Shown here one piece after another: positions 7,862 through 24,606 of a DNA stretch of 64,000 nucleotides. The translations under genes and the position numbers were made by a program. This DNA is from Anaerolineae bacterium. GTDB lineage: Bacteria; Chloroflexota; Anaerolineae; B4-G1; DUEL01. The stretch lies in assembly GCA_025060135.1 (NCBI GenBank), contig JANXCY010000013.1:2203-66202 (forward strand), in the 5' to 3' direction. Each line of letters starts with the position of its first letter. Position 1 is the stretch's first letter. The notes beneath the pieces were generated by a model. It saw only the letters and a list, made by a program, of their open reading frames with translations. It was not told the origin of the DNA and searched no databases.

Positions 7862-10603
7862 TTACCGTCCCTGCGCGGCCCGCAGGAGCAGACTCCCAAT
7901 CCGGGCCGCATCCTCCGGGATAGAGGCATGCTCCAGGAGGACGGCGACCGCATAGCGGGGCGCGTTCGCCGGCGCGACGCCCAAAAACCAGGCATGGGGC
8001 GGTCGGCCTGCCCCTGCCATCGCCGTCCCCAGGTGGCCAAGGGCATCCGGCGAGAAAGACTCCCAGGCCGCCAGCAGGACGCGCGCTGCATCCGGGGGCA
8101 GGACTTCCCGGGGGCGGCCCGGGACCTCTGGCGTCTGCCATGTCCCATCCGGCGCCTGGACCTCCAGCACCCGGCGCGGCACCGGCATCACCCCGTTGTT
8201 GGCCAGCGTCGCCGCCACCAGCGCCATCCGTAGCGGGGAGACGGTCAGGTCGCCCTGACCGATCGCCTCCCGCGCCGCATCAGCGGACATCCCCGCCACC
8301 CGGGGGGGAGGGGTCGGAAGAGCCGGCGACATGCCCTCCGGAGGTCGCGCCCGGGTTTCAGGAGGCCGTTCTGCGGGCACGGCCTCCATCAACCCCCAGC
8401 GAAGGAAGCCTTCCTCCAGCCTCTCTGGGCCCAGTTGCTCCCCCAGGACGGCGAAAGGGCCCGGGCAGGCGGCCCGCAGCGCGCCGATCATCCAATCTTC
8501 CGGTGAGACCTCCCCCCGGCAGGTTACCGTTACGCCGTTGATGAACAGGGTCGCAGTCAGGTTAGGAGCAGGGTTGTAGAGAGTGGTCAGGCCGCGCCGG
8601 AGGGCCTCCGCCAGGACCACCGTCTCCAGCGCCGCCCCGGGCTGGTAGGGCTGAAGGGCCCGGTTCAGCAACGGGCCGCCCGGGTCCTCCCGTAATTGCT
8701 CCCATTCCTCTTCCAGACGGTTGGGATCAAAGGTCGGCGAGGAGGCCATCGCCAGCACCTCGCCGCTGGAAGCGTCCAGCAGCACCACTGCGCCCGTCCG
8801 GCCCGCCAGGGATTGCGCGGCCAGCCGCTGGAGGACAACGTCCAGTGTCAGCCGCACATCCTGGCCATGGGAAGGGCGATGAAGGAGCGCATCCCATGCC
8901 GTCTCCCAGGCGGAACGGTCGGCCTCGCCGCGCAGGACCCGGTCCCATTCCGCCTCGATCCCGCTGGTGCCGTGGCGCAGACTGGCGTAGCCGACCACCG
9001 GCGCCGCCGTCGGTTCCGGATAGACGCGGGTAACCCACCCGTCTGGACTCACCGTCGCGTCGGCCAGGACAACTCCGTTTCGGTCCAGAATCTGGCCCCG
9101 GACGATGCGTTGCTCGTATTCCACCCGGCGGGGGTTATCCTCCCGCGCTACCAGCCATCCGGCCCGCAGAACCGACCAGTAGCCGCAGGCCAAAGCCAGG
9201 ATGGCCAGGGCGGCGCTCAGTCCCAGGGCCAGGTGGCGAACGGGCCGGACCCACTCGCGATCGCGGGGAGCCGGGGTGGTTCCCCCAGAGACCACCAGGA
9301 GCAGGCCCAGGGCGATGAACGTCGCCAGCAAGGAAGAGCCTCCGTACGAGAGGAAGGGCAGGGTTACCCCGGCAATGGGCACCAGTTTGACGTTCGCGGC
9401 CATGATGATCCAGGCCTGGACTCCCCAACCAGCGGTCAACCCAGCAGCCAGGAATCGCTCAAAGGGGCGGGGGGCCCGCAGGGCGACCCGCAGTCCCCGC
9501 AGCAGGAGAACCCCGTAGAGGGCAATGAGGGCCAGCGTTCCCAGGAGGCCAAACTCTTCGGCAACGGCAGCGAAAACGAAGTCAGTGTGAACGGCAGGGA
9601 TATAGGTAGGGCGGCCCAGGCCCAGGCCCTGGCCGAAAATCCCCCCGGCCCCGAAGGCCAGCAGGCTCTGGACGATCTGAAAGGCTTGGTCAGGGGCAGC
9701 AGGCCAGGGGAAGAGCCATATCTGAATCCGCAGCGCCACTCGCTCGGAGCCATAGTATCCCGCCATCCCGACCAGGAGGAAGAGCGCCAGTCCCCCGATC
9801 AGATACCCCCACTGGCTGGTGGCCAGGTAGAGCATGGCCAGGAAGGTGAAGAAGAGGAGCATCGCGGCGCCCAGGTCCTGCTGCGCGGCCAGGAGGAGAA
9901 GGGTGAGGCCGAACATCACCAGCAACGGGCCGACGTAGGCCAGCGGGGGAAGGTTGAGAGGACCAATGCGGTGTCCCGTCGCCTTCAGGAGTTCCCGCCG
10001 CTCAGCCAGATAGGAGGCCAGGAAGACGACCAGGAGAAGTTTCAGAGGCTCTGAGGGCTGGAAGTACGCGCCGCCGATGCCCAGCCAGAGACGGGGGCCG
10101 GCTCCACCGGGGTTGACGCCCAGGACCAGGGTGGCGGCCAAGAGGAGCAAACCCGCAAAGAGCCAGGTGTAGCGGTAACGGCGCAGCCAGCGCAGGGGAA
10201 CCGGCTCCCGCACCCCGATCTGGACGACGGCGATCATCGCTAGAGTGGAGAGGAGAAGCCAGGTCGCCTGGCGGGGGAGGAAATTGGGTGCCAGACGGGC
10301 CACCATGAGCAGGCCCCAACCGCTCAGGAAAGCGGCCACTGGAAGGAGCAACGGGTCTCGGTGGGGCAGGCAACGGGAGAAAGTGGCGTGGGCAGCGGCA
10401 AAGGAGAGGATGAAAGAAAGGAGCAGGCCAATGGCCCGCGCGAGACCCAGAGCGGGAGAGGCCATCAGCAGGGTGGCCGTGCCTGCCGCCACGAAGAGGA
10501 GGGCCAGCAGGAGCAACCCTCGCTCTCGTCGGACAACGAAGGGCGGATAAGGTTCAGTAGGATCCAACATAGGCGTCAGCCGATCCAGGTATCGCAGACG
10601 CAA
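7862..10603 (-). CDS. SEDS (FtsW/RodA/SpoVE) peptidoglycan polymerase fused to a class-B PBP-like domain whose catalytic motifs are degenerate.
   Basis: The N-terminal ~450 aa is polytopic with the SEDS signature GVTLPFLSYGGSSLL. The C-terminal region aligns with bPBP transpeptidases (NRALQPYQPGAALETVV vs NRAV..EPGSTVKP; IGQGDLTVSPLRMA..ATLANNG; GHLGTA..HAWFLGVAP vs GKSGTA..HAWF.GFAP). SxxK reads AALE, SxN reads AAC and KTG reads HLG. Confidence 0.8.
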   Translation of the reverse strand: MRLRYLDRLTPMLDPTEPYPPFVVRRERGLLLLALLFVAAGTATLLMASPALGLARAIGLLLSFILSFAAAHATFSRCLPHRDPLLLPVAAFLSGWGLLMVARLAPNFLPRQATWLLLSTLAMIAVVQIGVREPVPLRWLRRYRYTWLFAGLLLLAATLVLGVNPGGAGPRLWLGIGGAYFQPSEPLKLLLVVFLASYLAERRELLKATGHRIGPLNLPPLAYVGPLLVMFGLTLLLLAAQQDLGAAMLLFFTFLAMLYLATSQWGYLIGGLALFLLVGMAGYYGSERVALRIQIWLFPWPAAPDQAFQIVQSLLAFGAGGIFGQGLGLGRPTYIPAVHTDFVFAAVAEEFGLLGTLALIALYGVLLLRGLRVALRAPRPFERFLAAGLTAGWGVQAWIIMAANVKLVPIAGVTLPFLSYGGSSLLATFIALGLLLVVSGGTTPAPRDREWVRPVRHLALGLSAALAILALACGYWSVLRAGWLVAREDNPRRVEYEQRIVRGQILDRNGVVLADATVSPDGWVTRVYPEPTAAPVVGYASLRHGTSGIEAEWDRVLRGEADRSAWETAWDALLHRPSHGQDVRLTLDVVLQRLAAQSLAGRTGAVVLLDASSGEVLAMASSPTFDPNRLEEEWEQLREDPGGPLLNRALQPYQPGAALETVVLAEALRRGLTTLYNPAPNLTATLFINGVTVTCRGEVSPEDWMIGALRAACPGPFAVLGEQLGPERLEEGFLRWGLMEAVPAERPPETRARPPEGMSPALPTPPPRVAGMSADAAREAIGQGDLTVSPLRMALVAATLANNGVMPVPRRVLEVQAPDGTWQTPEVPGRPREVLPPDAARVLLAAWESFSPDALGHLGTAMAGAGRPPHAWFLGVAPANAPRYAVAVLLEHASIPEDAARIGSLLLRAAQGR

Positions 10604-14390: not shown

Positions 14391-15734
14391 ATGGACCTCT
14401 TTGAACACTTCGGGCAGAAGCGGATTCGGGAAGAGGCACCTCTGGCAGCGCGCATGCGTCCCCGTACCCTGGATGAGTTCATTGGCCAGGAGCACATTCT
14501 GGGGGAAGGGCGGCTGCTGCGCCGGGCCATTGAGGCCGACCGGCTCTTTTCCTCCCTGATTTTCTGGGGGCCGCCTGGCACCGGGAAGACCTCGCTGGCC
14601 ATGATCATCGCCCACACCACCCGCTCCCACTTTGAGACGCTCAGCGCGGTCATGGCGGGTGTGGCCGACATCCGGCGCGTCGTGCAGGAAGCCAAGGAGC
14701 GGCGCGGGATGCACGGGCGGCGAACCCTCCTCCTGATTGACGAAATCCATCGTTTCAACCGCGCCCAGCAGGATGCACTGCTCCCCCACGTGGAGGACGG
14801 AACCATCACCCTGATCGGTTCCACCACCGAGAATCCCTACTTTACAGTCGTTGGGCCCCTCCTCTCTCGCTCTCGGGTTTTCCCGTTCAAGCCCCTGACC
14901 GATGACGAGGTTCGGCTGATCATAGAACGGGCCCTAAGCGACCCGGAGCGCGGCTATGGCCGCCGTGCGGTCCGCGTGGACCCGGAGGCGATGGACCACC
15001 TGGTCCGCATTGCGGGCGGAGATGCCCGGGCTGCGCTGAACGCCCTGGAACTGGCGGTGGAGAGCACCCCACCGGACGAGAGCGGAACGGTTCACATCAC
15101 CCTGGCAGTGGCGGAGGATTCCATCCAGCGGCGTGCCCTGCTCTACGATCGGGCCGGAGACGAGCACTATGACACCATCTCCGCCTTCATAAAGTCTGTT
15201 CGGGGTTCCGACCCGGATGCGGCGCTCTACTGGCTGGCGAAAATGGTCGCCGCGGGAGAGGACCCCCGTTTCATCCTCCGGCGACTGTACATCTTAGCGG
15301 CAGAGGATGTGGGACTGGCGGACCCTCAGGCCGTCGGGGTGGTCAACGCCTGCGCTCAGGCTTTTGAGTGGGTAGGGTGGCCAGAGGGCCAATACCACCT
15401 GGCCCTGGCGACGCTCTACCTGGCCACGGCGCCCAAATCCAACGCCGTCGGCGCATACTGGCAGGCCCTGGCCCACATTGAGGAACATGGCTCGGGTCCG
15501 GTGCCCCTCCACCTGCGGGATAAGTCCGACCTGTTTCATGGCCCGCTGCGGGAGCACTACCGGCAGACCATGGGCCCGAACTTCGGTTATCGCTACCCCC
15601 ACGACGACCCTCGGGGGTGGGTGGAGCAGTCGTACCTCCCCGATGGAGTGGAGGGTGGGTGGTTTCGCCTGAAAGGTCACGGCTACGAACGGGTTATCCT
15701 CCGCCGCCTGCAACGGATGAAGAGACCCCGATAG
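14391..15734 (+). CDS. rarA: Replication-associated recombination protein A (RarA/MgsA AAA+ ATPase).
   Basis: Walker A GPPGTGKTS and Walker B LLIDEIHRFN are present, with the RarA C-terminal domain. The probable start is MDLFEHF at 14391; the ORF track begins at 14343. Confidence 0.85.
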   Translation: MDLFEHFGQKRIREEAPLAARMRPRTLDEFIGQEHILGEGRLLRRAIEADRLFSSLIFWGPPGTGKTSLAMIIAHTTRSHFETLSAVMAGVADIRRVVQEAKERRGMHGRRTLLLIDEIHRFNRAQQDALLPHVEDGTITLIGSTTENPYFTVVGPLLSRSRVFPFKPLTDDEVRLIIERALSDPERGYGRRAVRVDPEAMDHLVRIAGGDARAALNALELAVESTPPDESGTVHITLAVAEDSIQRRALLYDRAGDEHYDTISAFIKSVRGSDPDAALYWLAKMVAAGEDPRFILRRLYILAAEDVGLADPQAVGVVNACAQAFEWVGWPEGQYHLALATLYLATAPKSNAVGAYWQALAHIEEHGSGPVPLHLRDKSDLFHGPLREHYRQTMGPNFGYRYPHDDPRGWVEQSYLPDGVEGGWFRLKGHGYERVILRRLQRMKRPR

Positions 15735-15758
15735 CCATAACGGGAACCAGGAGGTTCT

Positions 15759-16334
15759 ATGAGTGCAATCGCTGTCCCCGCCCTTTACTTTTCCCAACCC
15801 GGCCCCCAGAACACGGATCGGACACTGGAAGCAGCCCATCGGCGGGCTGAAGAACTGGGCATCCGAACCGTTCTGGTCGCCAGCACCACCGGGGAGACGG
15901 GCGCAAAGGCCGTCCAGGTCTTCCAGGGATACAACGTAGTGGTGGTTACCCACTCCACCGGCTTCCGGGCGCCGAACAACCAGGAATTGCGGCCGGAATA
16001 CCGCGCGGCCATTGAGGCTGGTGGTGGACGCATCCTTACTTGCCAGCATGCCTTCGGCGGCATCAACCGGGCCGTGCGCCGGAAACTGAACACCTACCTG
16101 ACCGACGAGATCATCGCCTTTACCCTCCGGAACTTTGGAGAAGGGACCAAAGTCTGCATAGAGATTGCGCTGATGGCGGCCGACGCCGGATTGGTCCGAG
16201 TAGATGAACCCTGCATTGCCATCGCAGGAACGGGTCATGGGGCGGATACGGCCCTGGTCCTGAAGCCCGCTAACGCCCAGGCGTTTTTTGACCTCCGGGT
16301 GATGGAAATCATCGCCAAGCCCCGCCTGGGATAA
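15759..16334 (+). CDS. Pyruvate-kinase C-terminal (alpha/beta) domain-like protein.
   Basis: It is 191 aa. The pattern LVASTTGETGAKAV...VVVVTHS...IALMAADAG resembles stand-alone PK_C-domain proteins. The assignment rests on family recall only. Confidence 0.45.
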   Translation: MSAIAVPALYFSQPGPQNTDRTLEAAHRRAEELGIRTVLVASTTGETGAKAVQVFQGYNVVVVTHSTGFRAPNNQELRPEYRAAIEAGGGRILTCQHAFGGINRAVRRKLNTYLTDEIIAFTLRNFGEGTKVCIEIALMAADAGLVRVDEPCIAIAGTGHGADTALVLKPANAQAFFDLRVMEIIAKPRLG

Positions 16335-16386
16335 ACCCATATGCGCAGACCGCCCGGCCGGAATGTCCGAGGGGAGGAGTGCACCC

Positions 16387-16608
16387 ATGAAGCCGGTTTC
16401 CGAGATGACCTTTGAGGAAGCGTTGACAGAACTGGAAGAGGTCGTCCGAAGGCTGGAAGCAGGCGGGTTAACCCTGGAAGAGAGCCTGGCCCTCTATGAA
16501 CGGGGGCAGGCACTGGCCGCCTATTGCAACCGGCAACTGGACCAGGCGGAACTGAAAGTCAGTCAACTCTCGCCGGACGGCACCCTGCTTCCTTTGGAAC
16601 TGGGATAA
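16387..16608 (+). CDS. xseB: Exodeoxyribonuclease VII small subunit.
   Basis: MTFEEALTELEEVVRRLEAGGLTLEESLALYERG is the canonical XseB sequence. No xseA is adjacent. Confidence 0.75.
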   Translation: MKPVSEMTFEEALTELEEVVRRLEAGGLTLEESLALYERGQALAAYCNRQLDQAELKVSQLSPDGTLLPLELG

Positions 16609-16767
16609 CCTGATAGGGGATCCCACAGACCCGGTAACGGAAAACCAGGCGTGTCAAGCCCTCGGTATGGAGGGGGACTCGTCATACCTTTCTCTTCGGA
16701 AGGCAACCCCCTCTCCCACCACCACTCACTGACCCATCGTGCCGAGCCCGCGCCGGCGCGCGATCGC

Positions 16768-16797
16768 TTGACAAGAGCCCGTACTTCGGTGTATAAT
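16768..16797 (+). promoter_or_regulatory. Strong sigma70 promoter upstream of AOR: TTGACA, 18 nt, TATAAT.
   Basis: -35 at 16768-16773 and -10 at 16792-16797. Immediately upstream lie two adjacent perfect palindromes, CGCGCCGGCGCG (16749-16760) and CGATCG. Confidence 0.6.
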
Positions 16798-16990
16798 AAT
16801 TTCTGAAGTTTGATCTAACGCCACACCCGGCACATTACAGAAAACGCCATACCGGGTTCTCCGACCCACCGCGCTCCCTCCGGGACGAGTGGGCGATACG
16901 GTGTGGGGAGCAATCTCCACGCCCGCCGTGCTTGCAAAGGAGACGCTGAAAGGCGGGCATGTCCCGCCAAAGGGTCTCCTTTTTTATTTA
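16798..16990 (+). promoter_or_regulatory. Structured leader RNA of about 235 nt. It is a candidate riboswitch/attenuator, possibly of the Moco/W-cofactor class, controlling AOR.
   Basis: The leader runs from the promoter to the ATG at 17034. It contains hairpins, including CCCAC...GTGGG. The segment CGCCCGCC (16920-16927) can pair with the 5' half of the terminator stem, giving alternative antiterminator and terminator folds. An SD AGGAGG follows the terminator. Confidence 0.45.
16939..16989 (+). terminator. Intrinsic terminator/attenuator inside the AOR 5' leader.
   Basis: GGAGAC(gcugaaa)GGCGGG(caugu)CCCGCC(aaagg)GUCUCC is followed by TTTTTTATTT. It lies 45 nt upstream of the AOR start codon. 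Confidence 0.55.
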
Positions 16991-17033
16991 ACACTGTTTC
17001 CCCCAACCATCCCCCAATCATAGGAGGTGCACA

Positions 17034-18773
17034 ATGTCCAGGATGCTACGGGTCAACATGACTGACCGGACAGTCAAGTACGAAGATGTCCCCGAGCAGT
17101 ACCGCTTACTGGGCGGGCGCGGCCTGACCTCCTCCATCATCTGCGACGAAGTGGACCCCACCTGCCATCCTCTGGGCCCCAACAACAAACTGGTTTTCGC
17201 CCCGGGCATCATCACCGGCACCAATGCGCCTACCTCTGGTCGCGTCTCGGTGGGCGGGAAATCCCCCCTCACCGGCGGCATCAAAGAGTCCAACGCCGGT
17301 AGCGGCTGGCCCCAGTCGGTGGCCAAACTGGGGATCAAGGCCATCATCGTGGAGGGCTACCCCAAGGACGGCGGCTGGTGGGGGCTGCACATCACCAAAG
17401 ACGGTGCCACCTTCTTCCCCGCCAACGAGTACGCCGGTCGGAGCCTCTACGAGGTCTACCCGCTTCTCTTTGAGCGCTTCGGCAAGAAAGTAGACATCTG
17501 CTCCATCGGCGTCGCCGGAGAGATGAAGATGGCCATGGCCGGGGTCTGCTTTAACGACGCGCATGGGCGGCCCAGCCGTTACTCCGGGCGCGGGGGCCTC
17601 GGCGCAGTGATGGGCTCCAAAGGGCTCAAGTTCATCGTCGTGGACGCCACCGGTGGGCCCGGGGTGGAGATCGCCAACCCCGACCTCTTTGAGCAGGGCC
17701 GCAAGAAGATGCTGGAAGCGCTCCGCCAGCACGACATCACCAAGCCCAAAGGCGGCCTGAACACCTACGGTACCGCGATCCTGGTCAACATCCTCAACGA
17801 GGCCGGCGCCTACCCCACCCGTAACTTCCGGGAGGGCCGCTTCGAGGGCGCAGCGGCCACCTCCGGTGAGGCCATCTTTGAGAACAACAAGAAGCGCCTG
17901 GGCAAGGAACTCTACAACCACGCCTGCCACCCCGGCTGCGTGATCCAGTGCTCCAACACCTATTACGACGAGCAGGGGAAGGAACTCGTTTCCTGCATTG
18001 AGTACGAGTCCACCTGGGCGCTGGGAGCCAACTGTGGTATTGACAACCTGGATGCCATCGGCAAACTCATCTGGCTCTGTAACGACTTGGGCATTGACAC
18101 GATTGAAACCGGTGGCACCCTGGGGGTGGCGATGGACGCGGGACTTCTGCCCTTCGGCGACTGGCAGGGAGCCATTCGCTTGCTGGATGAGGACATCCGC
18201 AAGGGCACTCCGCTGGGTCGCATCCTGGGCAACGGCGCTGCCTTCACTGGCCAGGCCTTCGGCTGGCACCGGGTCCCTGGCGTGAAGGGACAGAATATGC
18301 CCGCCTACGAGCCGCGCGCCATCAAGGGCATCGGCGTTACCTACGCCACCTCCACCATGGGCGCTGACCACACCGCTGGCTACACCATCGCGCCGGAGAT
18401 CCTGGGCGTGAGCGGTAAGGCCGATCCGCGCGATGTCAAGAAGGCCGACCTCTCCCGCAACTTCCAGGTCGCCACCGCCTTCATTGACTCCACCGGCCAC
18501 TGCCTCTTCATCGCTTTCGCCATCCTGGACATCCCCAGCGGCTTTGAGGGCATGGTGGAAGAGTGCGCGGGCGTCCTGGGCGTGGACTGGACACCGGATG
18601 ACGTAACCCGGATCGGCAAAGAGATAATGGAAAAGGAACTGGCCTTCAACCGGGCCGCGGGCTTCACCAAAGCCCACGACCGGATGCCCGAATTCATGAA
18701 GTACGAGCCGCTCCCTCCCCACAACGTCGTCTGGGACGTGCCCGATGAGGAACTGAACGCCGTGTGGTGGTAA
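17034..18773 (+). CDS. aor: Tungsten-containing aldehyde:ferredoxin oxidoreductase (AOR family).
   Basis: A 579-aa protein with an N-terminal AFOR_N domain (RVNMTDRTVKYEDVP...GGRGL) and an AFOR_C domain with conserved Cys residues. It is full length with a good SD. Confidence 0.9.
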   Translation: MSRMLRVNMTDRTVKYEDVPEQYRLLGGRGLTSSIICDEVDPTCHPLGPNNKLVFAPGIITGTNAPTSGRVSVGGKSPLTGGIKESNAGSGWPQSVAKLGIKAIIVEGYPKDGGWWGLHITKDGATFFPANEYAGRSLYEVYPLLFERFGKKVDICSIGVAGEMKMAMAGVCFNDAHGRPSRYSGRGGLGAVMGSKGLKFIVVDATGGPGVEIANPDLFEQGRKKMLEALRQHDITKPKGGLNTYGTAILVNILNEAGAYPTRNFREGRFEGAAATSGEAIFENNKKRLGKELYNHACHPGCVIQCSNTYYDEQGKELVSCIEYESTWALGANCGIDNLDAIGKLIWLCNDLGIDTIETGGTLGVAMDAGLLPFGDWQGAIRLLDEDIRKGTPLGRILGNGAAFTGQAFGWHRVPGVKGQNMPAYEPRAIKGIGVTYATSTMGADHTAGYTIAPEILGVSGKADPRDVKKADLSRNFQVATAFIDSTGHCLFIAFAILDIPSGFEGMVEECAGVLGVDWTPDDVTRIGKEIMEKELAFNRAAGFTKAHDRMPEFMKYEPLPPHNVVWDVPDEELNAVWW

Positions 18774-18828
18774 ACCCAGTACCCCCAGCGCCGGGTGCTG
18801 GCCCCATAGCCAGCATCAAAGCCATACC

Positions 18829-18875
18829 TTTTCCCTGCGGCGGCGGTGCCGTTGCAGGGAAAATGTTTTCTTTAC
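18829..18875 (+). terminator. Intrinsic terminator after AOR.
   Basis: TTTTCCCTGC, a 15-nt loop and GCAGGGAAAA form a perfect 10-bp inverted repeat, followed by TGTTTTCTTT. Confidence 0.6.
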
Positions 18876-18939
18876 ATACCCCTATCCCCTGCTGAGATAG
18901 ATGTCCCCACCGAATCCAACCTAGGATCAGGAGCACCTG

Positions 18940-18967
18940 TTGCGGTTTCCGGTACGTGTGGTAAAAT
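18940..18967 (+). promoter_or_regulatory. Promoter: TTGCGG, 16 nt, TGgTAAAAT (extended -10).
   Basis: -35 at 18940-18945 and -10 at 18962-18967 with TG at -15/-14. It lies upstream of the DksA-like gene. Confidence 0.45.
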
Positions 18968-19009
18968 ATATGATTGCCAGATGGACGGGTACGATACACG
19001 GAGGGCCCA

Positions 19010-19354
19010 ATGCCGGTCTCAAACGAGGAACTGAGAAACTGCCTGCTTCAAGAACGGGCATACCTGCTGGAACAGGTAACCCGACCTGGCGACCATGAGT
19101 ATCGCAGCGCCGGATACGGCAACCACATCGCCGATGATGCCACCGAGACCTTTGAACAGGCCAAAGAGGTCTCCCTTCACCGGAATGAGACCTCTTTACT
19201 CTGGCTGGTAGAGCATGCCCTGGCGAAGTTTGAACTGGGCACCTATGGCATCTGCGAGGCATGTGGCGCCCCGATTGACCGGGCCCGCTTGAAAGCCCTC
19301 CCCTACGCGCTGTACTGTCTGGACTGTCAGGCTCAGATGGAGCAGCGGCGGTAG
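19010..19354 (+). CDS. DksA/TraR-family C4 zinc-finger protein.
   Basis: The C-terminal motif CEACGAPIDRARLKALPYALYCLDC is a four-Cys finger. The start at 19010 has an SD GGAGGG; the ORF track start at 18974 would be leaderless. Confidence 0.7.
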   Translation: MPVSNEELRNCLLQERAYLLEQVTRPGDHEYRSAGYGNHIADDATETFEQAKEVSLHRNETSLLWLVEHALAKFELGTYGICEACGAPIDRARLKALPYALYCLDCQAQMEQRR

Positions 19355-19367
19355 GCGCGCTGTCGGG

Positions 19368-19889
19368 GTGGCCTCCAGAGGTGCTTCGTTGTCCGGCCTC
19401 AAAAACCTGATTCTGATCACCATCGCCGCGCTGACCGTGGCCCTGGACCAGGCCACCAAATCCTGGATTGTGGCTCACATGAGCCTGGGAGAATCCAGAG
19501 AAGTGGCCCCATGGCTGAACGCCATTTTCTCCCTGACCTATGTCACCAACACCGGTATCGCCTTCGGCCTGTTCCAGGGTCTGGGTGATGTCCTCCTGAT
19601 CGTCGCCCTGCTCGCTGTCGGCGCGATGTTTATCTACTACCGCCACCTCCCCCCCGGTCCTCTTCTGCTCCCTATCGCCCTGGGCCTTCAACTGGGTGGC
19701 GCCCTGGGCAATCTGATAGACCGTCTGACCCGAGGGGCCGTAGTGGATTTCATTGACCTGAATTTCTGGCCCCTCCATCACTGGCCGATTTTCAACCTGG
19801 CGGATGCCAGCATCGTAACCGGCGTGGCCCTTCTGGTGTTAATGATACTGAGCAAGAAAGACCGCCGGGAGCCGCTGGCTCCAACATGA
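19368..19889 (+). CDS. lspA: Lipoprotein signal peptidase (signal peptidase II).
   Basis: The protein has four TM helices and the LspA motifs NTGIAFG and VVDFID...FNLADASI. Confidence 0.8.
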   Translation: MASRGASLSGLKNLILITIAALTVALDQATKSWIVAHMSLGESREVAPWLNAIFSLTYVTNTGIAFGLFQGLGDVLLIVALLAVGAMFIYYRHLPPGPLLLPIALGLQLGGALGNLIDRLTRGAVVDFIDLNFWPLHHWPIFNLADASIVTGVALLVLMILSKKDRREPLAPT

Positions 19890-20818
19890 CTATGGCAACG
19901 CCCTCCTGCGGAGAGGTCTCTTTCGTCGTCTCTTCCGAAGAAGCGGGAGAACGGCTGGACCGGGCCTTGGTCGCCCGGTTCCCGGACCTCAGTCGCGCCC
20001 AACTCCAGCGGCTGGTCCGCTCCGGCGCCGTTACCGTCAACGACTCCACCGTCCGGCCGGCTCACCGGCTCACGCTCGGCGACCGGGTCGCCATCACCTT
20101 CCCGGAGGAACCGACGGTCCGCCCCGAAGCCCTCCCGCTGACCATCGTCTACGAGGACGACTACCTGCTGGTAGTGGACAAACCGGCGGGAATGGTAGTT
20201 CACCCGGCTGCCCGGCTGGTCAGCGGCACCCTGGTCAATGCCTTGCTGGCCCACTGCCCCCAACTCGCCAGCGTGGGTGGACCGGACCGGGCAGGCATCG
20301 TCCATCGCCTGGACCGGGAGACCTCGGGGCTCATCGTGGTGGCCAAACATCCGGAGATCCACGCGGCCCTCCAGCGACAGTTCCAACGCCGCCGGGTGCG
20401 TAAAACCTACGTGGCCCTGGTAGAGGGACAAGTCCACCCCCGCGAAGGCATCATTGACGTCCCCATCGGCCGGGACCCGAGAGATCGGACCCGGATGATG
20501 GCCTCCCGAACAGGCCGCCCGGCTATCACTCAGTACCGGGGGGTGGAATTCTTCCCCCACTACACCCTGCTGGAAGTACGTCCGCACACCGGTCGGACCC
20601 ATCAGATTCGGGTGCACCTGGCCTGGCTGGGCTACCCGGTGGTCGGCGATCGGGTCTACGGGCGGCGACACCAGCCGTTGCTCCCGGACCGTCATTTCCT
20701 GCATGCCCGCGACCTGGCCTTTACCCATCCGGTTACGGGGAAGCCCCTCTCCCTTTCCGCGCCCCTGCCCCCCGAATTGACCGCGATCCTGACCCGGCTG
20801 CGGCGAGAGAAGTCATAG
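19886..20818 (+). CDS. rluD: RluA-family 23S rRNA pseudouridine synthase (RluD-like).
   Basis: It has an S4 domain plus the catalytic motif HRLDRETSGLIVVAK. It overlaps lspA by 4 nt (ATGA). lspA-rluD linkage is typical. Confidence 0.85.
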   Translation: MTMATPSCGEVSFVVSSEEAGERLDRALVARFPDLSRAQLQRLVRSGAVTVNDSTVRPAHRLTLGDRVAITFPEEPTVRPEALPLTIVYEDDYLLVVDKPAGMVVHPAARLVSGTLVNALLAHCPQLASVGGPDRAGIVHRLDRETSGLIVVAKHPEIHAALQRQFQRRRVRKTYVALVEGQVHPREGIIDVPIGRDPRDRTRMMASRTGRPAITQYRGVEFFPHYTLLEVRPHTGRTHQIRVHLAWLGYPVVGDRVYGRRHQPLLPDRHFLHARDLAFTHPVTGKPLSLSAPLPPELTAILTRLRREKS

Positions 20819-21759: not shown

Positions 21760-22017
21760 ATGACCGCAAAGGGAATGGTCATCATAGACGAAAACCGATG
21801 TAAAGGATGCGGGCTCTGCCTTGCCGTCTGCCCGGTCCACATCCTGAAACTGGCCGACGGTCGGTTCAACACCCGGGGCTACCGGCCTGTAGAAATAACG
21901 GACCCCGAAGCCTGTACCGGTTGCGCCATGTGCGCCATCATCTGCCCCGACGTGGTCTTTACCGTCTACCGCCGCAGGGCCCGTCGTGGGCAACCCGCTC
22001 CCCCCCCGACCGGTTGA
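21760..22017 (+). CDS. korD: 2-oxoacid:ferredoxin oxidoreductase delta subunit (2x[4Fe-4S] ferredoxin).
   Basis: The protein contains the two ferredoxin cluster motifs [12 protein letters not shown] and [12 protein letters not shown]. Confidence 0.7.
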
Positions 22018-22048
22018 CAGGCTGGACACCTCCTTGGAGCGAGTACCT

Positions 22049-23110
22049 ATGGCCAGAGAACTGTGGGAAGGGAATATGGCCATCGCGGAGGCCGCCGTTC
22101 GGGCAGGATTGGAGGCCTTCTTTGGTTACCCCATTACCCCTCAAACCGAGATCTTAGAGTATCTCTCTCGCCGTCTACCCGAACTGGGACGGGTCTTTCT
22201 GCAGGCCGAGAGCGAGGTGGCTTCCATCAATATGGTCTACGGCGCCGCCTGTGCCGGTGCCCGGGTGATGACTTCTTCCTCCAGCCCCGGCATCAGCCTG
22301 ATGCAGGAGGGGTTCTCGTATATCGCCTGCTCCGAAGTCCCCGCCGTTGTGGTGAACCTGATGCGGGGCGGGCCCGGCCTGGGGAATGTGGCCCCCTCTC
22401 AGGGAGACTACTTTCAAGCCGTGAAGATGGCCGGACATGGCGACTTCCACCCCATCGTCCTGGCCCCGGGCAGCATCCAGGAAGCGATTGACCTGACCAT
22501 CCTGGCCTTTGACCTGGCGGATCGGTATCGCACCCTGGCAATGATTGTCGCGGACGGGTCCCTGGGCCAGATGATGGAACCCGCCGAGATGCCCCCGATG
22601 CGCCCCGTCCGTCCGCCCGGTGAGCGCCCCCCCTGGGCGCTCACCGGGGCTCGGGGCCGCCTGCCCAATGTGATTACTTCCCTCTACCTGGCGGAAGAAG
22701 ACCTGGAACAGGTCAATCTGCGCCTGCAGGCCAAACTGCGTCGAATTGCGGCGAACGAAGTCCGCTGGAAGGAGTACGCCACCGACGACGCCGAACTGCT
22801 CATAGTGGCCTTCGGCACAGTGGGGCGGATCTGCCAGACGGTGGTGCGGGAAGCCCGGGCTAAAGGCTTGAAAGCCGGCCTCCTGCGCCCGGTTACCCTC
22901 TGGCCCTTCCCCTCGACCCGTATCGCCGAACTGGCTGCGCGAGTGCGAGGAATGCTGGTCGTGGAGATGAACGCCGGGCAGATGCTGGAGGACGTCCGAC
23001 TGGCAGTGGAGGCCCGCTGCCCCGTCCGCTTCTACGGCCGGCTGGGCGGCATGATCCCCCTGCCGGATGAGATTCTGCCCCAACTGGAAGCAATGGACGC
23101 GGAGGTATGA
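22049..23110 (+). CDS. korA: 2-oxoacid:ferredoxin oxidoreductase alpha subunit.
   Basis: The POR/KOR alpha fold is present ([10 protein letters not shown]...[10 protein letters not shown]...[12 protein letters not shown]). The start is taken at MARELWEG; the ORF track begins at 21986. Confidence 0.85.
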
Positions 23111-23905
23111 ATGGCCACCGGACAGGACATCCCTCCCGATATGGAACCGGTCTACCAGTACCCGGAAAGTTTGACCTCCCGGTTCACCCACTACTGCCCC
23201 GGCTGTACCCATGGGGTTATCCATCGGCTCATCGCCGAAGTGATTGACGAACTGGGCATCCGGGAGCGGACGGTCGGCGTGGCGCCGGTGGGGTGCGCGG
23301 TGCTGGCGTACGATTACTTCAACCTGGACTTCTGCGAGGCAGCCCACGGACGGGCTCCAGCAATGGCGACCGGCATCAAACGAGTCAGTCCGGATACGGT
23401 GGTCTTCACCTACCAGGGGGACGGCGACCTGGCGGCCATCGGCACCGCGGAGATCATCCATGCCGCCAACCGGGGAGAACTCATCACCACCATCTTCGTC
23501 AACAACGCCATCTACGGGATGACCGGCGGGCAAATGGCCCCCACCACCCTACCCGGCCAGGTTACCACCTCTTCCCCCGGTGGGCGGGACGTCCGGATGG
23601 CCGGCTGGCCCATCAAAATGGCCGAACTGATCGGGGTGCTCCCCGGCGCTGCCTACGTTACCCGACAGGCTGTGTTAGACGTACCCGGAATCCGACGCGC
23701 CAAACAGGCCATCCGACTGGCTTTCCGAGTCCAACTGGCCGGCCTGGGTTTCTCTATGGTGGAAATCCTTTCCACCTGCAACACCAACTGGGGACTCTCG
23801 CCGCTGGAGGCGCTGGAATGGGCAAAGGCCCACATGGTCCCCTATTACCCCCTGGGGGACACCAAGGTGGCCGACGCAGTACGCGCGCTGATGGAGCAAG
23901 CATAG
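23111..23905 (+). CDS. korB: 2-oxoacid:ferredoxin oxidoreductase beta subunit (TPP-binding).
   Basis: The TPP-binding motif GDGD reads GDGDLAAIG...[11 protein letters not shown]. It starts 1 nt after the korA stop. Confidence 0.85.
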
Positions 23906-24496: not shown

Positions 24497-24596
24497 GGGA
24501 AAACCAGGCGGGAGTGGATGGGAGTCGAACCCACCGCGGCCCGCTCTGCGCGACCCGCCACCGGTTTTGAAGACCGGGAGGCCCACCGGGACCCAA
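24497..24596 (-). tRNA. selC: tRNA-Sec (selC), anticodon UCA.
   Basis: Minus strand reads 5'-GCGGGGGUGGUUGGGUCCCGGUGGGCCUCCCGGUCUUCAAAACCGGUGGCGGGUCGCGCAGAGCGGGCCGCGGUGGGUUCGACUCCCAUCCACUCCCGCC. The acceptor is GCGGGGGU/ACUCCCGC. The D-arm is GGGUCC-CGGU-GGGCCU, a 6-bp stem with a 4-nt loop as in E. coli selC. The anticodon arm is CCGGU-CUUCAAA-ACCGG. The variable arm is about 24 nt. The T-arm is GGUUCGACUCC. CCA is not encoded. Confidence 0.75.
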
Positions 24597-24606
24597 CCAC
24601 CCCCGC

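Follow-up and report, generated by a model that had tools for sequence, protein, structure and literature searches.

The locus analyzed here raises the question of what the long untranslated leader of a tungsten-enzyme gene does. It lies in a stretch of 64,000 nucleotides (hereafter the window; 64% G+C) of contig JANXCY010000013.1 from an Anaerolineae bacterium. On the plus strand, the window carries a gene (17034-18773) that Pfam assigns to the AOR family, for an aldehyde:ferredoxin oxidoreductase (AOR), a tungstopterin enzyme of 579 amino acids. A sigma-70-type promoter (16768-16797, +; TTGACA 16768-16773, an 18-nt spacer, TATAAT 16792-16797) precedes the gene. Transcription would start near 16804, which gives a leader of about 230 nt up to the ATG at 17034. 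Promoter and leader are present as a preliminary description of this DNA had given them. As a whole, the observations are probably best explained by a transcriptional riboswitch of the molybdenum-cofactor (Moco) family, which lacks the P3 stem, takes the tungsten cofactor (Tuco) as its ligand and acts as an ON switch.

The aptamer was located at 16858-16943 (+) by a match to RF01055, by a covariance model and by RNAalifold. In a sensitive E-value scan of 16600-17100, positions 16847-16958 matched RF01055 with 31.0 bits (E 1.7e-5) over model positions 1-135, the P3 positions being deleted. The other sub-threshold Rfam matches in this range (MIMT1_1, M23 and sR7; E 0.8-10) were set aside as chance. 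The aptamer comprises P1 (16858-16862 with 16939-16943), P2 (16865-16893), a junction (16894-16899), P4 (16900-16923) with a GCAA tetraloop at 16910-16913, P5 (16925-16926 with 16934-16935) and a conserved AAA (16936-16938), all on the plus strand. Its conserved nucleotides, CUCCGA 5' of P2 and CC..CC and AAAGGAG 3' of P4, match the upper-case consensus of Rfam. The whole leader folds better than its shuffled versions (z = -2.4). The window and the flanks of the loci described below contain no second copy of the aptamer; the other covariance-model matches reached E 0.6-0.9 only.

Conservation of the element was analyzed in 80 fetched loci that encode AOR relatives (numbered with the prefix L), the closest of which are 82-96% identical. 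Since these closest loci come from metagenome-assembled Chloroflexota labelled Anaerolineae, Thermoflexales or Thermoflexia, the window was placed in that lineage. The pattern CTCCGA...AAAGGAG selected 31 leaders, which were aligned with that of the window by MAFFT (alignment A1; 32 sequences, 117 columns, 27 of them invariant). Without any prior structure, RNAalifold returned from A1 exactly 23 pairs of the Rfam type, forming P1, P2, P4 and P5. Standard pairs occupied 98.2% of the paired cells, compared with 36-51% when the 3' partners were slid by 1-3 columns. Compensatory (two-sided) changes were observed in 15 of the 23 pairs and were extensive across three stems, and the observed covariation score was reached by none of 500 shuffles. 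The covariance model built from A1 found the element in 33 loci and in the window with scores of 69-107 bits (98.1 bits for the window), always on the AOR strand and 5' of the gene. Two of these leaders (L022 and L027) do not match the pattern and were therefore outside the seed. The model of Rfam itself reached its cut-off in 9 of the 15 loci tested (36.3-70.8 bits), and these leaders align end-to-end with that of the window.

The conserved element shows two variants. Leaders with a GAAA tetraloop score 62-71 bits with the Rfam model, and those of the GCAA subtype, to which the window copy belongs, 36-47 bits. A receptor-like UAUGG/CCUAUG was found in P2 of eight GAAA members; members with GCAA or another GNRA loop, including the window with its short P2, have no P2 receptor. 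Regulski et al. (2008; PMC2408646), who first described the family, reported the same correlation (GAAA with the P2 receptor, GCAA without it). P3 is absent in all 34 leaders, and P2 is connected to P4 through a 6-nt junction in all 32 aligned leaders. From these facts, 16858-16943 is almost certainly a genuine Moco-family RNA without P3, if a somewhat divergent one. The preliminary description had proposed a riboswitch of the Moco or tungsten-cofactor class 5' of the tungsten AOR, to be given up if there were neither an Rfam hit nor conservation. The RF01055 match (E 1.7e-5), the 33 further loci and the covariation were found, and the class assignment stands.

The P3-less subtype is well documented. 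In the survey of Regulski et al. (PMC2408646), 58 of 176 Moco RNAs lacked P3, and these were almost exclusively associated with either molybdopterin (MPT) synthesis or enzymes dependent on the tungsten cofactor; the subtype was proposed to sense Tuco rather than Moco. COG2414, to which AOR corresponds, occurs 31 times in the supplementary file that holds the gene-context table and a conserved-domain key, and a Moco RNA of Moorella thermoacetica precedes an operon including a COG2414 gene (PMC2408646 supplement). AOR-associated P3-less Moco RNAs have thus been known since 2008, and the present leader is a further example, from a Chloroflexota clade. It shares with the published subtype the P1-P2-P4-P5 arrangement, the junctions CUCCGA..., ...CCGCC... 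and AAAGGAG, the GNRA loop on P4 and the absence of P3, the lack of a P2 receptor in combination with GCAA, the 5'-leader position before a tungsten enzyme (COG2414) and an intrinsic terminator that follows. It differs in its score, the window copy having 31 bits against a cut-off of 36, and in its host, a Thermoflexales-like member of the Chloroflexota, a phylum not listed in 2008. Moco riboswitches have been described 5' of moaA and moaC in Dehalogenimonas, a genus of the Chloroflexota (PMC13390414).

A further comparison is with Eubacterium limosum (PMC11725836), the Tuco riboswitches of which (WOR1, tupABC, fetABC1/2 and focA) are P3-less RF01055 elements like the one in the AOR leader. 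One of them lies 5' of the operon of the tungsten aldehyde oxidoreductase WOR1, and two are followed by terminator hairpins, as is the AOR leader. For the WOR1 leader, however, translational control by a sequestor of the ribosome-binding site was proposed, whereas the terminator of the AOR leader overlaps P1.

This terminator (16939-16989, +) consists of a bulged hairpin (16939-16979) with the U-run UUUUUUAUUU (16980-16989) directly 3' of it, as the preliminary description had recorded. The outer stem is formed by GGAGAC (16939-16944) and GUCUCC (16974-16979), and the inner stem by GGCGGG (16952-16957) and CCCGCC (16963-16968) around the loop CAUGU. The energy of the hairpin is -24.3 kcal/mol (fold energies here are nearest-neighbour values at 37 C; the organism may be a thermophile), and the gap between the U-run and the ATG is 44 nt. 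A simple terminator scan of 15500-19500 did not list this terminator, probably because internal loops interrupt the stem.

The aptamer and the terminator use one and the same strand. GGAGA at 16939-16943 serves both as the 3' strand of P1 and as the five bases with which the terminator stem begins, and it can pair either with UCUCC at 16858-16862 (P1) or with UCUCC at 16975-16979 (terminator). In 32 of the 34 leaders, a hairpin with a U tail begins at the first or second base of the 3' strand of P1, and four or five bases are common to P1 and the hairpin; in 28 of these leaders, all five are. The two exceptions are L025, in which the GGAGG...CCUCC base is kept and the U-run is weak, and L029. 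The fifth, outermost pair of P1 covaries in A1 (U-A in 13 sequences, C-G in 19), and the terminator partner tracks the outermost P1 base: opposite A it is always U, and opposite G either C or U. L022 shows a joint change of all three strands (CUUCC / GGGAG / CUUCC). With this covariation among three strands, selection acts on both helices, which exclude each other.

The calculated energies are consistent with a terminator that forms by default. The minimum free energy (MFE) structure of the leader in the window is the terminator fold (-63.0 kcal/mol), and the fold with the full aptamer (-53.9 kcal/mol) lies 9.1 kcal/mol higher. The terminator fold was the MFE structure in all 30 leaders calculated, with the aptamer state 1.7-14.9 kcal/mol above it (median 7.0). 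For the segment 16849-16950, in which the 3' arm of the terminator has not yet been made, the aptamer fold misses the optimum by no more than 2.3 kcal/mol.

On this basis, the following mechanism can be proposed. The RNA started at the strong promoter, about 230 nt in length up to the start codon, would fold at 16858-16943 into an aptamer of four stems (P1, P2, P4 and P5). In the absence of ligand, the more stable terminator would form, and transcription would end at the U-run, with the start codon still 44 nt ahead. When a tungsten-pterin cofactor is bound, P1 would be locked and the base of the terminator stem withheld; only the upper hairpin could then form, with approximately 5 nt between it and the U-run, and the polymerase would continue into the AOR gene. 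The apoenzyme would thus be made only when its cofactor is available. Since P1 and the terminator use the same strand, a ligand-locked P1 should prevent termination, and an ON switch through this competition is likely, judging from the architecture and the calculated energies. That the ligand is the tungsten cofactor is suggested by the published correlation with the absence of P3. The Shine-Dalgarno sequence AGGAGG (17022-17027, +; 6 nt 5' of the ATG, as read from the sequence) is located outside both the aptamer and the terminator, and control should therefore be transcriptional.

The adenine riboswitch of pbuE/ydhL, the fluoride riboswitch of crcB and the ZTP riboswitch are of the ON type, and in each of them the 3' strand of the aptamer is the 5' arm of the terminator. 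The AOR leader would follow the same logic: a closing helix stabilized by the ligand competes for one strand with a terminator that forms by default, without the need for a separate antiterminator. The aptamers and ligands of these riboswitches are unrelated to those of the AOR leader, so that the likeness is one of mechanism and not of family. Within the Moco family the comparison is different. Activation is implied by the use of the P1 3' strand as the terminator base, whereas the characterized moaA member of E. coli represses translation. No statement on ON polarity for the Moco/tungsten-cofactor family was found in the literature searched.

Several facts weigh against this interpretation. 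First, the RF01055 score of the window (31.0 bits) lies below the gathering score of 36 bits, and standard annotation would miss the element; with Rfam in gathering mode, the scan of the whole window reported a tRNA-Sec alone and not the aptamer. It is worth noting that the gathering score is an operational threshold and not a structural feature. Second, P1 is short (5 bp), and the invariance of its four inner pairs is due in part to the choice of the seed by CTCCGA...AAAGGAG and is thus uninformative. Third, in 2008 the instability of the cofactors had stood in the way of a direct demonstration that Moco or Tuco binds to any family member (PMC2408646). Fourth, fetABC1 and focA of E. limosum, the sole terminator-type Tuco riboswitches with expression data that we found, act as OFF switches (PMC11725836). 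Finally, the Moco-type aptamer is absent from the leaders of L001, L005, L007 and L008, whose AORs are 93-94% identical to that of the window and whose leaders are unrelated to it, less than 300 nt of upstream DNA being available in L005 and L007. The element must therefore be dispensable, and it is not universal even within the lineage; judging from these leaders, the riboswitch is gained or lost among near relatives.

The identity of the ligand is the part of the interpretation for which a rival survives best. The ON architecture might be kept while the ligand is Moco, metal-free molybdopterin or another pterin intermediate, and not specifically the tungsten cofactor. The link between P3 and tungsten is a correlation with listed exceptions, the E. 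coli RNA did not change its specificity when P3 was deleted, and in vitro binding was not achieved for the family (Regulski et al. 2008, PMC2408646). Among the 19 open reading frames (ORFs) of the window scanned with Pfam, furthermore, there was no gene for tungstate transport or cofactor synthesis. The nature of the regulated gene, on the other hand, points to tungsten. The AOR carries the Pfam domains AFOR_N (5.6e-61) and AFOR_C (2e-73), and its best solved relatives, 9mqx_D (1.4e-96), Pyrococcus 1aor_A (7.5e-87) and 8c0z_A (2.6e-82), are all tungsten-containing AORs; the solved members of the family are tungsten enzymes. In addition, none of the 34 leaders has P3, and P3-less RNAs are 'almost exclusively' tied to genes of MPT synthesis or tungsten enzymes (PMC2408646). 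We therefore consider a ligand other than the tungsten cofactor to be unlikely, and the tungsten cofactor remains the preferred ligand.

A second rival concerns the polarity. The preliminary description had assigned an antiterminator to the strand CGCCCGCC (16920-16927, +), which takes in the last bases of P4, a single base of the junction and the 5' strand of P5. In an OFF switch built from the same aptamer, CGCCCGCC would pair with GGCGGG (16952-16957) in the absence of ligand, and binding of the ligand would draw CGCCCGCC into the aptamer and so free the terminator. The complementarity is indeed present in the window: CGCCCGCC forms 7 contiguous Watson-Crick pairs with GGCGGGC (duplex energy, -17.9 kcal/mol), and the antiterminator fold (-55.3 kcal/mol) and the aptamer fold (-53.9 kcal/mol) are of similar stability. 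Partial complementarity (-12 to -14 kcal/mol) was also found in L002, L006, L012 and L026, and the E. limosum riboswitches of the terminator type are up at limiting tungsten, as expected of OFF switches (PMC11725836) and opposite to the prediction for the AOR leader. In the other 31 leaders, however, the same complementarity mostly amounts to 2-4 pairs, with a typical duplex of approximately -6.6 kcal/mol. Enforced folding and the duplex energies in 32 leaders thus led us to reject the pairing as a conserved antiterminator: it is peculiar to the window and occupies bases of P4 and P5. The OFF model further fails because the aptamer and the full terminator both need GGAGA at 16939-16943. A bound aptamer would exclude the complete terminator instead of freeing it, and the terminator is already the most stable fold without ligand in 30 of 30 leaders. 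An OFF switch is therefore very improbable, and the ON switch through competition between P1 and the terminator is retained.

A protein-controlled or constitutive attenuator that resembles the Moco motif by coincidence or as a relic, for which the score under the gathering threshold and the near relatives that manage without the element might speak, is scarcely credible in view of the similarity to the full-length model, the abundant compensatory change in three stems, the junction nucleotides kept among 27 invariant columns, the same position 5' of the same gene in 34 loci and the orthologues that reach up to 70.8 bits with the Rfam model.

If the riboswitch is extended from the window to its relatives, the P3-less elements of this Chloroflexota clade would be ON riboswitches activated by the cofactor, which license synthesis of the tungsten apoenzyme only when the cofactor is present. 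We favor this generalization, though by a narrow balance of judgment. It predicts that AOR synthesis in these anaerobes is coupled to the supply of tungsten cofactor at the level of transcription elongation, with a bearing on the way in which tungsten restricts the metabolism of aldehydes and acids in communities of hot springs and the subsurface. The strand shared by P1 and the terminator gives a clear ON prediction in a family known mainly for repression. Since the element lies just below the Rfam threshold, routine pipelines would miss it, and the alignment of 34 sequences with the GCAA-loop subtype could extend the RF01055 seed into the Chloroflexota. The RNAs are G+C-rich, some of them come from hot-spring metagenomes, and they might be suitable for a first direct demonstration of ligand binding. 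The general understanding of riboswitches is unchanged by the finding.

The surroundings of the leader were also analyzed. The promoter agrees with the consensus at 12 of 12 positions and is the sole promoter-like site in 15500-19500. It is located between the stop of the gene for the small subunit of exonuclease VII (16363-16608; Pfam Exonuc_VII_S) and the ATG at 17034. Since promoters resembling TTGACA-N17/18-TATAAT were found 30-80 nt 5' of the aptamer in most orthologous leaders, this conservation supports the assignment. Downstream of the AOR gene, a terminator with a 16-bp stem followed by TGTTTTCTTT (18829-18873, +) ends the transcription unit. The next genes encode a DksA/TraR-type zinc-finger protein, signal peptidase II and a pseudouridine synthase. 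The AOR gene therefore appears, from its sequence context, to be monocistronic. Two small ORFs over the leader (16815-17021, -, and 16903-17061, +) were set aside, the conserved RNA explaining the region. Three minus-strand ORFs (18927-19781, 19778-20728 and 15294-16388) have no Pfam match and overlap plus-strand genes that have matches, and are probably not genes.

Next to the -35 element, the preliminary description had noted two adjacent palindromes, CGCGCCGGCGCG (16749-16760) and CGATCG (16761-16766), as a possible operator. Both are present at 16749-16766, adjoining the -35. Perfect palindromes of 12 nt are, however, not unusual in the window (11, compared with approximately 25 in first-order Markov simulations), and no such palindromes occur 5' of the -35 in L002, L003, L006 and L011, where the sequences are unrelated. 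On the grounds of frequency and lack of conservation, the operator role was rejected, and the palindromes are probably not functional.

Another repeat was found inside the promoter. An inverted repeat of the type CCGGATTCCGG occupies the spacer between -35 and -10 in L003, L006 and L011, approximately 75 nt 5' of their aptamers; the corresponding part of the window spacer (16777-16788) reads CCCGTACTTCGG. The repeat may be due to chance, or it may be a repressor site in the promoter that adds a further layer of control.

Between the riboswitch terminator and the ribosome-binding site, two tandem copies of UCCCCCAA were observed at 16999-17006 and 17010-17017 (+). UUCCCCA(A/G) is found at the same spot, just 5' of the AOR Shine-Dalgarno sequence, in L002, L006, L009, L011, L015, L016 and L018, and it is kept also in AOR leaders without the riboswitch. 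Motifs of the UCCCCCAA type are not enriched in the window as a whole (23 matches, 19 expected). Pairing with GGAGG is one possible role of the motif; a protein-binding site or a ribosome standby site is another.

A few of the orthologous loci deserve mention. In L009, the contig ends inside the aptamer, and the terminator alone is retained. In L012, the ten bases CCTCCGACTC, which comprise the 5' strand of P1 and the start of P2, occur at 2817-2826 and again at 2778-2787, the repeat lying 39 nt 5' of the aptamer, and L006 has an additional CTCCGA right after the -10 element, at about 2778. These extra copies could be decoy partners for the GGAGG strand, or scars of a duplication. The covariance model found no riboswitch in L033 (labelled Sphingomonadaceae), L046 (labelled Deltaproteobacteria) and L057 (labelled Bathyarchaeota), whose AOR relatives are 69-72% identical. 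The bins of these three bear the labels of distant taxa, whereas the loci of the set otherwise belong to Chloroflexota, Bipolaricaulota or Thermotogota, which suggests horizontal transfer of the AOR gene or mis-binned contigs.

Elsewhere in the window, an ORF with POR_N and PFOR_II domains (2-oxoacid:ferredoxin oxidoreductase domains; 21986-23110, +) lies approximately 3 kb 3' of the AOR gene, and would provide a second ferredoxin-linked enzyme near the ferredoxin-dependent AOR. No Pfam match was obtained for the overlapping ORF of 452 amino acids (22175-23533, -), probably a spurious one. The tRNA-Sec (RF01852, 71.4 bits), which is the sole above-threshold Rfam match in the window, is located at 24510-24604 (-), and the organism therefore probably makes selenoproteins. 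Finally, an ORF of 913 amino acids (7862-10603, -) combines an FtsW/RodA/SpoVE (SEDS) domain with penicillin-binding protein (PBP) dimerization and transpeptidase domains, and from this domain composition it appears to encode a fused SEDS-PBP cell-wall synthase.

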